Shown here: positions 10,459-10,784 of the stretch, one piece after another | Layout of the letters: every line of letters starts with the position of its first letter | Numbering within the stretch: position 1 is the stretch's first letter | Assembly: GCF_044647545.1 (NCBI RefSeq) | Contig: NZ_CP172818.1 | DNA: 64,000 bases | Strand: one strand, 5' to 3' | From: Escherichia coli | GTDB taxonomy: Bacteria; Pseudomonadota; Gammaproteobacteria; Enterobacterales; Enterobacteriaceae | Made by a program: the position numbers and the translations under genes | The notes under the pieces: model-generated | Databases searched by the model: none | What the model saw: only the letters and a program-made list of their open reading frames with translations | Told to the model about the DNA's origin: nothing

Positions 10459-10498
10459 GTCCTCTTAGTTAAATGGATATAACGAGCCCCTCCTAAGG
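10459..10498 (+). pseudogene. argW: 5' fragment (nt 1-40) of tRNA-Arg(CCU) gene argW; 3' half absent
   Basis: GTCCTCTTAGTTAAATGGATATAACGAGCCCCTCCTAAGG folds as acceptor 5' strand, D-arm, anticodon stem 5' strand and CCT anticodon loop, then stops; no T-arm or acceptor 3' strand follows. Confidence 0.75.
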
Positions 10499-10508
10499 CT
10501 ATTGTCGA

Positions 10509-10784
10509 TTAAGGAGGGTATGGGGGATTACCAAAGGCAGCCCCTTTAAGCTCCGCAAGACGTTCTGACCAGTCATGCGCCAGCGCGTTGTCTTCCGCCG
10601 TGTAATACGCAGCACATTTGGCGTTATCACCGTCAGTGAACAGATCCAGAACAAACGGGCCAAACAGGGTGTTAATTCCCCAGAAAATGTTGTCCGGCGT
10701 GCGCCACTGATCACCCACTTCCTTCAGTTCATGGGCTGGTTTGTTCCGCAGTTCCACCAACTCCTGGCAATATTTATTACTCAT
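10509..10784 (-). pseudogene. yfdM: Truncated phage-type DNA N6-adenine methyltransferase (yfdM-like); ends 2 aa after the NPPY catalytic motif
   Basis: 91 aa from MSNKY..; WRTP...NAKC...NPPY motifs typical of phage Dam-like MTases; stop directly abuts the argW fragment junction; start overlaps yfdN stop (TAATG). Confidence 0.65.

Follow-up and report, generated by a model that had tools for sequence, protein, structure and literature searches.

Phage integration at a tRNA gene normally regenerates the gene, and argW is intact beside intS both in Escherichia coli K-12 and in strain BS-04. In the 64,000-nucleotide stretch of E. coli DNA analyzed here (the window), argW breaks off after 40 nucleotides and phage sequence follows. 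How was a tRNA gene lost at a phage attachment site, and what does the phage DNA within it represent? A preliminary description of the locus had started from the same expectation of a regenerated argW and proposed one secondary deletion, with one endpoint inside argW and the other inside a phage methyltransferase gene. Our comparisons with K-12 and with sister genomes make it probable that the insert is a cryptic prophage of the CPS-53/KplE1 family, trimmed at both ends inside the former argW by ordinary prophage decay.

The argW gene is split into a head and a displaced tail

The features of the locus are as follows.

10459 to 10498, plus strand: 5′ fragment of argW, nt 1 to 40
10499 to 10517, unstranded: junction filler of 19 nt, CTATTGTCGATTAAGGAGG
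10509 to 10784, minus strand: yfdM-like truncated phage N6-adenine methyltransferase (TIGR01712), 91 codons plus stop, ending NPPYPP
10784 to 11278, minus strand: yfdN, PerC-family regulator, 164 aa, intact (open reading frame, colinear with K-12 yfdN, annotation of matching records)
11275 to 11947, minus strand: yfdO-like replication protein O remnant, lacking the N terminus, with iteron-like repeats (alignments with K-12 and phage)
11965 to 12327, plus strand: yfdP (colinear with K-12 yfdP)
12393 to 13217, plus strand: yfdQ, DUF2303 family, 274 aa (open reading frame, colinear with K-12 yfdQ)
13345 to 13881, plus strand: yfdR, 5′-deoxynucleotidase (open reading frame, weak NF003009 match, yfdR in matching records)
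13872 to 14234, plus strand: yfdS-like phage protein, 120 aa (open reading frame, colinear with K-12 yfdS)
14234 to 14341, plus strand: yfdT-position gene, 5′ fragment, frameshifted (private lesions relative to the closest allele)
14342 to 14357, plus strand: 16-nt KplE1 att core, CTGCAGGGGACACCAT, made up of argW nt 61 to 75 plus T and equivalent to K-12 pawZ/attR

Positions 10459 to 10498 (GTCCTCTTAGTTAAATGGATATAACGAGCCCCTCCTAAGG) reproduce K-12 argW nt 1 to 40 base for base, are also 100% identical to argW of an ST648-like strain, and lie after yfdC, as in K-12. They hold the acceptor 5′ strand, the D arm, the 5′ strand of the anticodon stem, the CCU loop, and 2 nt that begin the 3′ stem strand. 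The preliminary description had recognized these 40 nt as the start of argW and expected no intact tRNA-Arg(CCU) at this position, and both points held. ARAGORN called six tRNAs in the window (alaX, alaW, valU, valX, valY, and lysV) and none at 10459, where there is no 75-nt argW cloverleaf, and an Rfam scan of 10300 to 10700 at E ≤ 10 gave zero tRNA matches. Probing the window with the final 28 nt of argW (nt 48 to 75) gave zero matches even with 3 mismatches allowed. A cryptic tRNA formed from the hybrid sequence (an acceptor-like stem, GUCCUCU, with the methylase G-run) was considered and rejected, as the 77 nt from 10459 have no folding advantage over shuffled sequence (z = −0.53) and no Rfam or ARAGORN match.

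The T arm and the acceptor 3′ strand had also been described as missing. Both are absent after nt 40, but argW nt 61 to 75 (CTGCAGGGGACACCA) persist at 14342 to 14356, and the acceptor 3′ strand has been displaced rather than lost; only nt 1 to 40 are in place at the syntenic site. The argW gene here is a pseudogene, a 40-nt head and a 15-nt tail lying 3.8 kb apart. As the tRNA searches bear out, no functional argW is left at this locus, and tRNA-Arg(CCU) can no longer come from it. The anatomy of the locus, both of its breakpoints, and the absence of a tRNA gene there can be read from the sequence itself.

The insert resembles CPS-53 and lacks both prophage ends

The insert has the layout yfdM′-N-O′-P-Q-R-S-T′, which is of the CPS-53/KplE1 type, with colinear yfdM-yfdS content at the argW site between yfdC and dsdC. 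BLAST against K-12 returned three colinear blocks: window 482 to 10504 corresponds to K-12 2456331 to 2466356; window 10516 to 14330 to K-12 2472119 to 2475970, spanning yfdM to ~100 nt into yfdT; and window 14342 onward to K-12 2476584 onward, which starts at pawZ and continues past dsdC. The remnant shares with K-12 CPS-53 its chromosomal site, the 16-nt core on the dsdC side, the colinear genes yfdM′-yfdN-yfdO′-yfdP-yfdQ-yfdR-yfdS at about 95% identity, the truncation point of the methylase, and the position of the O′/yfdP junction. The shared O′/yfdP junction was considered as proof of common descent with K-12 and then given less weight, because an intact phage has a similar short sequence upstream of yfdP and the deletion could recur.

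Unlike K-12 CPS-53, the window remnant lacks the intS-yfdL arm, most of yfdT, ypdJ, and torI, as well as attL and the last 35 nt of the reconstituted argW. On the left, about 5.77 kb are absent, from argW nt 41 on through intS, yfdG, yfdH, yfdI, tfaS, yfdK, and yfdL (K-12 2466349 to 2472118 when placed by argW nt 40/41; in BLAST, one block stops at 2466356 and the next starts at 2472119). The preliminary description had predicted this loss of the integrase end, intS to yfdL in the K-12 layout, and the alignment to the K-12 yfdC-argW-intS region and to yfdM confirmed it and placed both breakpoints. It had overlooked a second deletion. On the right, about 0.6 kb are gone up to the 16-nt core, comprising the 3′ part of yfdT, ypdJ, torI, and the attR arm. 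Neither K-12 2466357 to 2472118 (intS and the genes that follow) nor K-12 2475971 to 2476583 (the yfdT 3′ part, ypdJ, and torI) has a counterpart in the window, which holds no IntS/TorI module. The notion of a single deletion from argW to the methyltransferase gene is right in outline: a secondary deletion in an argW-integrated prophage is the best reading of the left end, but the other prophage end was deleted too.

The right junction reads ...GAAATTGCTCGCACCG followed by CTGCAGGGGACACCAT, and host DNA toward dsdC resumes at the core. The core sequence is the duplicated KplE1 core as given by Panis et al. (PMC2951348); the window has one copy of it, at 14342 to 14357, and not the attL and attR pair. 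KplE1 still excises (PMC2951348), whereas the window remnant cannot. It is fixed in place because it has no integrase, no excisionase, and no attL, and the tRNA gene that it occupies is dead.

Two details of gene content concern the middle of the insert. The yfdP start at 11965 was placed from the K-12 gene length (363 nt) and an aligned ATG and is putative; the open reading frame listed at this position is longer, with a TTG start (11887 to 12327). Iteron-like repeats (AGATTTTGACGGGTC and variants) lie at about 11836 to 11887 in the O-gene remnant. The surrounding 141-nt stretch, 11778 to 11918, is only about 75% identical to K-12 CPS-53 and about 72 to 75% identical at best to any complete E. 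coli genome, and it appears to be a distinct iteron allele.

The left junction contains a 19-nt filler

The preliminary description had argW fused directly to the methyltransferase gene. The fusion at nt 40 stands, but methylase homology begins only at 10518 (10516 against K-12), leaving 10499 to 10517 as filler in between. BLAST of 10493 to 10522 against E. coli genomes (E ≤ 10) returned nothing, and neither did exact 19-mer scans of viral contigs, GTDB genome contigs, and the window itself. The filler can be aligned to argW nt 42 to 59 if 1, 1, and 5 nt are taken as deleted and its last 7 nt as extra, and it may be a scrambled copy of that segment; its similarity to argW nt 41 to 75 is marginal (P of about 0.03). 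A 7-bp inverted repeat, in which AGGAGGG (10512 to 10518) in the filler is the inverted complement of CCCTCCT (10488 to 10494) in the anticodon loop, is not significant (P of about 0.1). Recombination by IntS at a methylase pseudo-core (GGGGGATTACCA, which resembles AGGGGACACCA) was rejected as the origin of the junction, since argW breaks at nt 40 (or about 59), outside the core, and the hybrid core is absent at the junction.

This junction was seen nowhere else. BLAST with 1.3-kb and 62-nt queries found it in none of 5426 complete E. coli genomes, 34-mer scans of GTDB representative genomes and JGI metagenome contigs found no copy, and exact-protein look-ups of the 91-aa and 102-aa open reading frames gave no independent sighting.

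The methylase breakpoint is shared with K-12

The methylase open reading frame spans 10512 to 10784 on the minus strand, with its stop at 10509 to 10511 and the C terminus ...GNPPYPP. Its TIGR01712 match scores 114.6 bits against a cutoff of 97.05 and covers profile positions 1 to 70 of 165 only. The catalytic domain is incomplete, ending 2 residues past NPPY; a full-length relative has 217 aa. Two details of the preliminary description were exact here: a Dam-like methyltransferase frame that ends 2 aa past NPPY and a stop codon that begins 10 bases after argW nt 40.

The same description had attributed the methylase endpoint to the deletion that removed the integrase end. The endpoint is not specific to that deletion, however, as K-12 yfdM is truncated at the same nucleotide. 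In the window the junction reads ...AAGGAGG joined to GTATGGGGGATTACC, in K-12 yfdM it reads ...CCACGG joined to GTACGGGGGATTACC, and the intact gene reads ...GCGGCT joined to GTATGGGGGATTACC. Both truncated genes break after the NPPY Tyr codon, and the next two bases are alike (GG on the window plus strand). The same GTA (Tyr) break with GG occurs in about 360 genomes that match at least 80% of the insert, mostly K-12 derivatives. K-12 yfdM (91 aa, ending NPPYPW) likewise retains the N-terminal 89 residues of a TIGR01712/PF05869 methylase. The tails that follow, PP and stop in the window and PW and stop in K-12, differ because the partners differ: the argW-side filler in the window and the tail-fiber gene yfdL in K-12.

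Given the identical truncation in K-12 yfdM, either this breakpoint was inherited or the gene breaks recurrently at this site. If the break came down from a CPS-53-like ancestor, the left deletion that followed would have ended no more than 19 nt from the old junction, an unexplained coincidence. Some evidence favors recurrence over inheritance, which we treat as a lead. At the nucleotide level, the gene is also broken no more than 11 nt from this site in three other rearrangements, which are independent and have different partners. In gene direction, one (L013) breaks after GGTA and is joined to tail-sheath genes, another (L014) breaks after GGTA and is joined to another open reading frame, and the third (L011) breaks after GGTAATC and is joined to an element with a D5-type primase, which we take to be P4-like. 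Many truncated protein relatives also diverge at codons 85 to 89, in a match list that is biased by length. The argument for a hotspot from such protein tails was dropped, given this bias and given that several of the tails are mere frameshifts in a C5 run; the nucleotide-level cases were kept. The NPPY region of the methylase gene may therefore be a hotspot of prophage decay, and the recurrence of breakpoints at its codons offers a small lead on such hotspots.

Two further observations belong to this region. Across loci L011, L013, L014, and L009, the breaks in this part of the methylase gene (window 10518 to 10532, the minus-strand GNPPY codons) fall after GGTA, GGTAATC, and CCCCCATAC, in gene direction, and the C5 run of the gene is also a site of frameshifts.

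Sister genomes bear on the origin of the insert

On both sides of the insert, the host DNA is 100% identical to that of ST648-type E. coli. In the sister genome WP4-S18-ESBL-09, argW is intact and empty and is followed directly by dsdC. Window 10001 to 10498 and 14342 to 23321 show zero differences from this empty site, the latter segment being 100% identical over 8980 bp with 0 gaps. Because sisters with identical flanks carry an empty, intact argW, the net change can be fixed as the replacement of argW nt 41 to 60 (GCTAATTGCAGGTTCGATTC) by 3843 bp (10499 to 14341).

At the same site, within the same host flank (identical dsdC protein), a full-length prophage is found in E. coli isolate 648 (NZ_OW967966.1), and this lineage therefore hosts such phages. 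In that prophage torI adjoins the core, and yfdP-yfdT and the methylase and PerC homologues are 96 to 97% identical to the window. A full-length methylase, an immunity and replication region, late genes (with a lambda-family holin), and torI are found in the isolate 648 prophage only, whereas the window keeps 3.8 kb.

A second source of similarity is an intact prophage elsewhere in WP4-S18-ESBL-09 (loci L002 and L006, NZ_AP022098.1, about 4.69 to 4.71 Mb), from which window 10518 to 11777 and window 12681 to 14240 show 0 differences. A truncated tRNA-dihydrouridine synthase fragment alongside it suggests that this prophage sits at dusA. Blocks of 100% identity, against about 95% to K-12, suggest that co-resident prophages exchanged sequence by gene conversion or that the parent was a mosaic. 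They complicate the decay account, as simple K-12-like descent would then need gene conversion or mosaicism.

The same identity raises the alternative that a 3.8-kb phage fragment, for instance from a co-resident dusA-side prophage, was inserted illegitimately into an empty argW, replacing 20 nt with no integration. The clean exchange of 20 nt for 3843 bp relative to the empty-site sister genome would suit such an event, as would the two difference-free blocks. The right edge, however, falls to the base on the KplE1 integrase core, and the fragment lies in the orientation and gene order of integrated CPS-53. In addition, K-12 CPS-53 has its methylase and O′/yfdP breakpoints at the same places, and the dusA-side prophage does not contain the 141-nt iteron stretch. 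We consider direct insertion very unlikely. The exact match of the right boundary to the published 16-nt core and the CPS-53 gene order and orientation support decay of an integrated prophage.

Long stretches identical to another prophage of the same clonal background, together with a junction found in no other database sequence searched, could also point to a chimeric assembly through repeats common to two prophages of one genome. Yet the breakpoints do not lie at repeat edges, and unique sequence marks them (the 19-nt filler, the right-junction variant TCGCACCG, and the 141-nt iteron allele). Both ends fall inside argW with the att core kept, which is not expected of a random chimera. The absence of differences and gaps over the 8980-bp flank indicates a high-quality assembly, and the absence of the junction from all 5426 complete E. 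coli genomes argues against a repeat-driven misassembly. An assembly artifact therefore appears highly improbable, and decay of an integrated prophage is the reading followed below.

Proposed course of decay

The order and mechanism that we infer for the deletions run as follows. In an ST648-like strain of E. coli, a KplE1-type phage would have integrated at the 16-nt core at the argW 3′ end and then decayed through successive illegitimate deletions whose joins show little homology or none. Two of the lesions have the breakpoints seen in K-12 CPS-53, with the methylase cut past the NPPY Tyr codon and the O gene fused to the region upstream of yfdP. A private left deletion would have run from argW nt 41 through attL and the intS-to-tail-fiber arm, leaving the 19 nt of scrambled filler. 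A private right deletion would have run from about codon 37 of the yfdT-position gene through torI to the attR core, with a join at CTG microhomology. In this way the remnant would have lost both recombination ends and, with them, the 3′ part of argW that integration had restored.

At the right junction, the join of the phage gene fragment to the core does show CTG microhomology, and small lesions cluster beside it. The closest phage allele matches without a difference for 1560 nt and then shows 5 differences in the final 104 nt: a 1-nt deletion at 14241, which frameshifts the yfdT-position fragment, a G/A difference at 14277, a 2-nt deletion at 14335, and a T-to-C change at 14339. The right-junction variant with these private lesions (TCGCACCG) is absent from all E. 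coli complete genomes. The clustering would be compatible equally with error-prone break repair and with gene conversion confined to block interiors.

Such lesions prompt a variant of the decay account, in which one failed excision or double-strand break at attL and attR cost the prophage both ends and was followed by resection and error-prone microhomology repair. Both private deletions start at or beside att cores, the right one ending exactly at the core; private small indels and substitutions lie within about 100 nt of both junctions, while the adjacent 1.2 to 1.5 kb are free of differences; and the filler resembles argW nt 42 to 59 with deletions of 1, 1, and 5 nt. That resemblance is marginal, however (the P value of about 0.03 given above), and resection would have been very asymmetric, about 20 to 35 nt on one side and several kb on the other. 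The clustering at block ends would also follow if a co-resident phage had overwritten block interiors only by gene conversion, and nothing places the two deletions at the same time. We regard a single episode as unlikely. The combined proposal, that the 15-nt NPPY stretch (GGTAATCCCCCATAC, in gene direction) is a genuine recurrent breakpoint and that one failed-excision or break-repair episode created the argW-null locus, is doubtful but worth stating. Stepwise decay is the account that we prefer.

Rarity and significance of the argW knockout

Among complete E. coli genomes, 5425 of 5426 keep argW, in the sense of a copy covering at least 80% of the gene. The junction region (10000 to 11300), the mlaA-yfdC-argW flank, and argW were each without a match in one genome of the 5426; a single genome behind all three results would probably carry a larger deletion of the region.

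The argW gene is dispensable, as argU reads AGG, and an argU argW double knockout is lethal (PMC4652775). Loss of argW should accordingly be tolerable here because argU also reads AGG, and AGG codons would be read by the argU tRNA-Arg(UCU) through wobble. With the isolate one could ask, in a natural setting, how E. coli manages when argU alone decodes AGG, a question that bears on AGG codon reassignment (PMC4652775).

A cryptic prophage of the CPS-53 type is known; judged from sequence comparison, what appears to be new is a more decayed allele together with a rare natural argW knockout. The main value of the analysis lies in correct annotation of the locus, as a locked-in, doubly truncated CPS-53-type remnant with an argW pseudogene. 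It also illustrates that prophage decay can erode a host tRNA gene that is normally preserved on integration.

Other observations in the window

The gene at the yfdF position (7164 to 8223) is present as two overlapping open reading frames, 7164 to 7538 and 7516 to 8223, and a frameshift is probable. A sister genome with 100% identity otherwise has 28 mismatches between about 7525 and 8300, a pattern that resembles a recombination patch; near yfdF it also has an apparently duplicated segment (about 195 nt, an estimate) that is absent from the window. IS186, which lies between nupC and pdeA in K-12 (2514273 to 2515617), is absent at window 52010/52011, where the sequence is colinear across the empty site. 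Downstream of lysV toward yfeH, window 57707 to 64000 is 94.6% identical to K-12, against about 97% for most of the window, and may be a more divergent or recombined segment.
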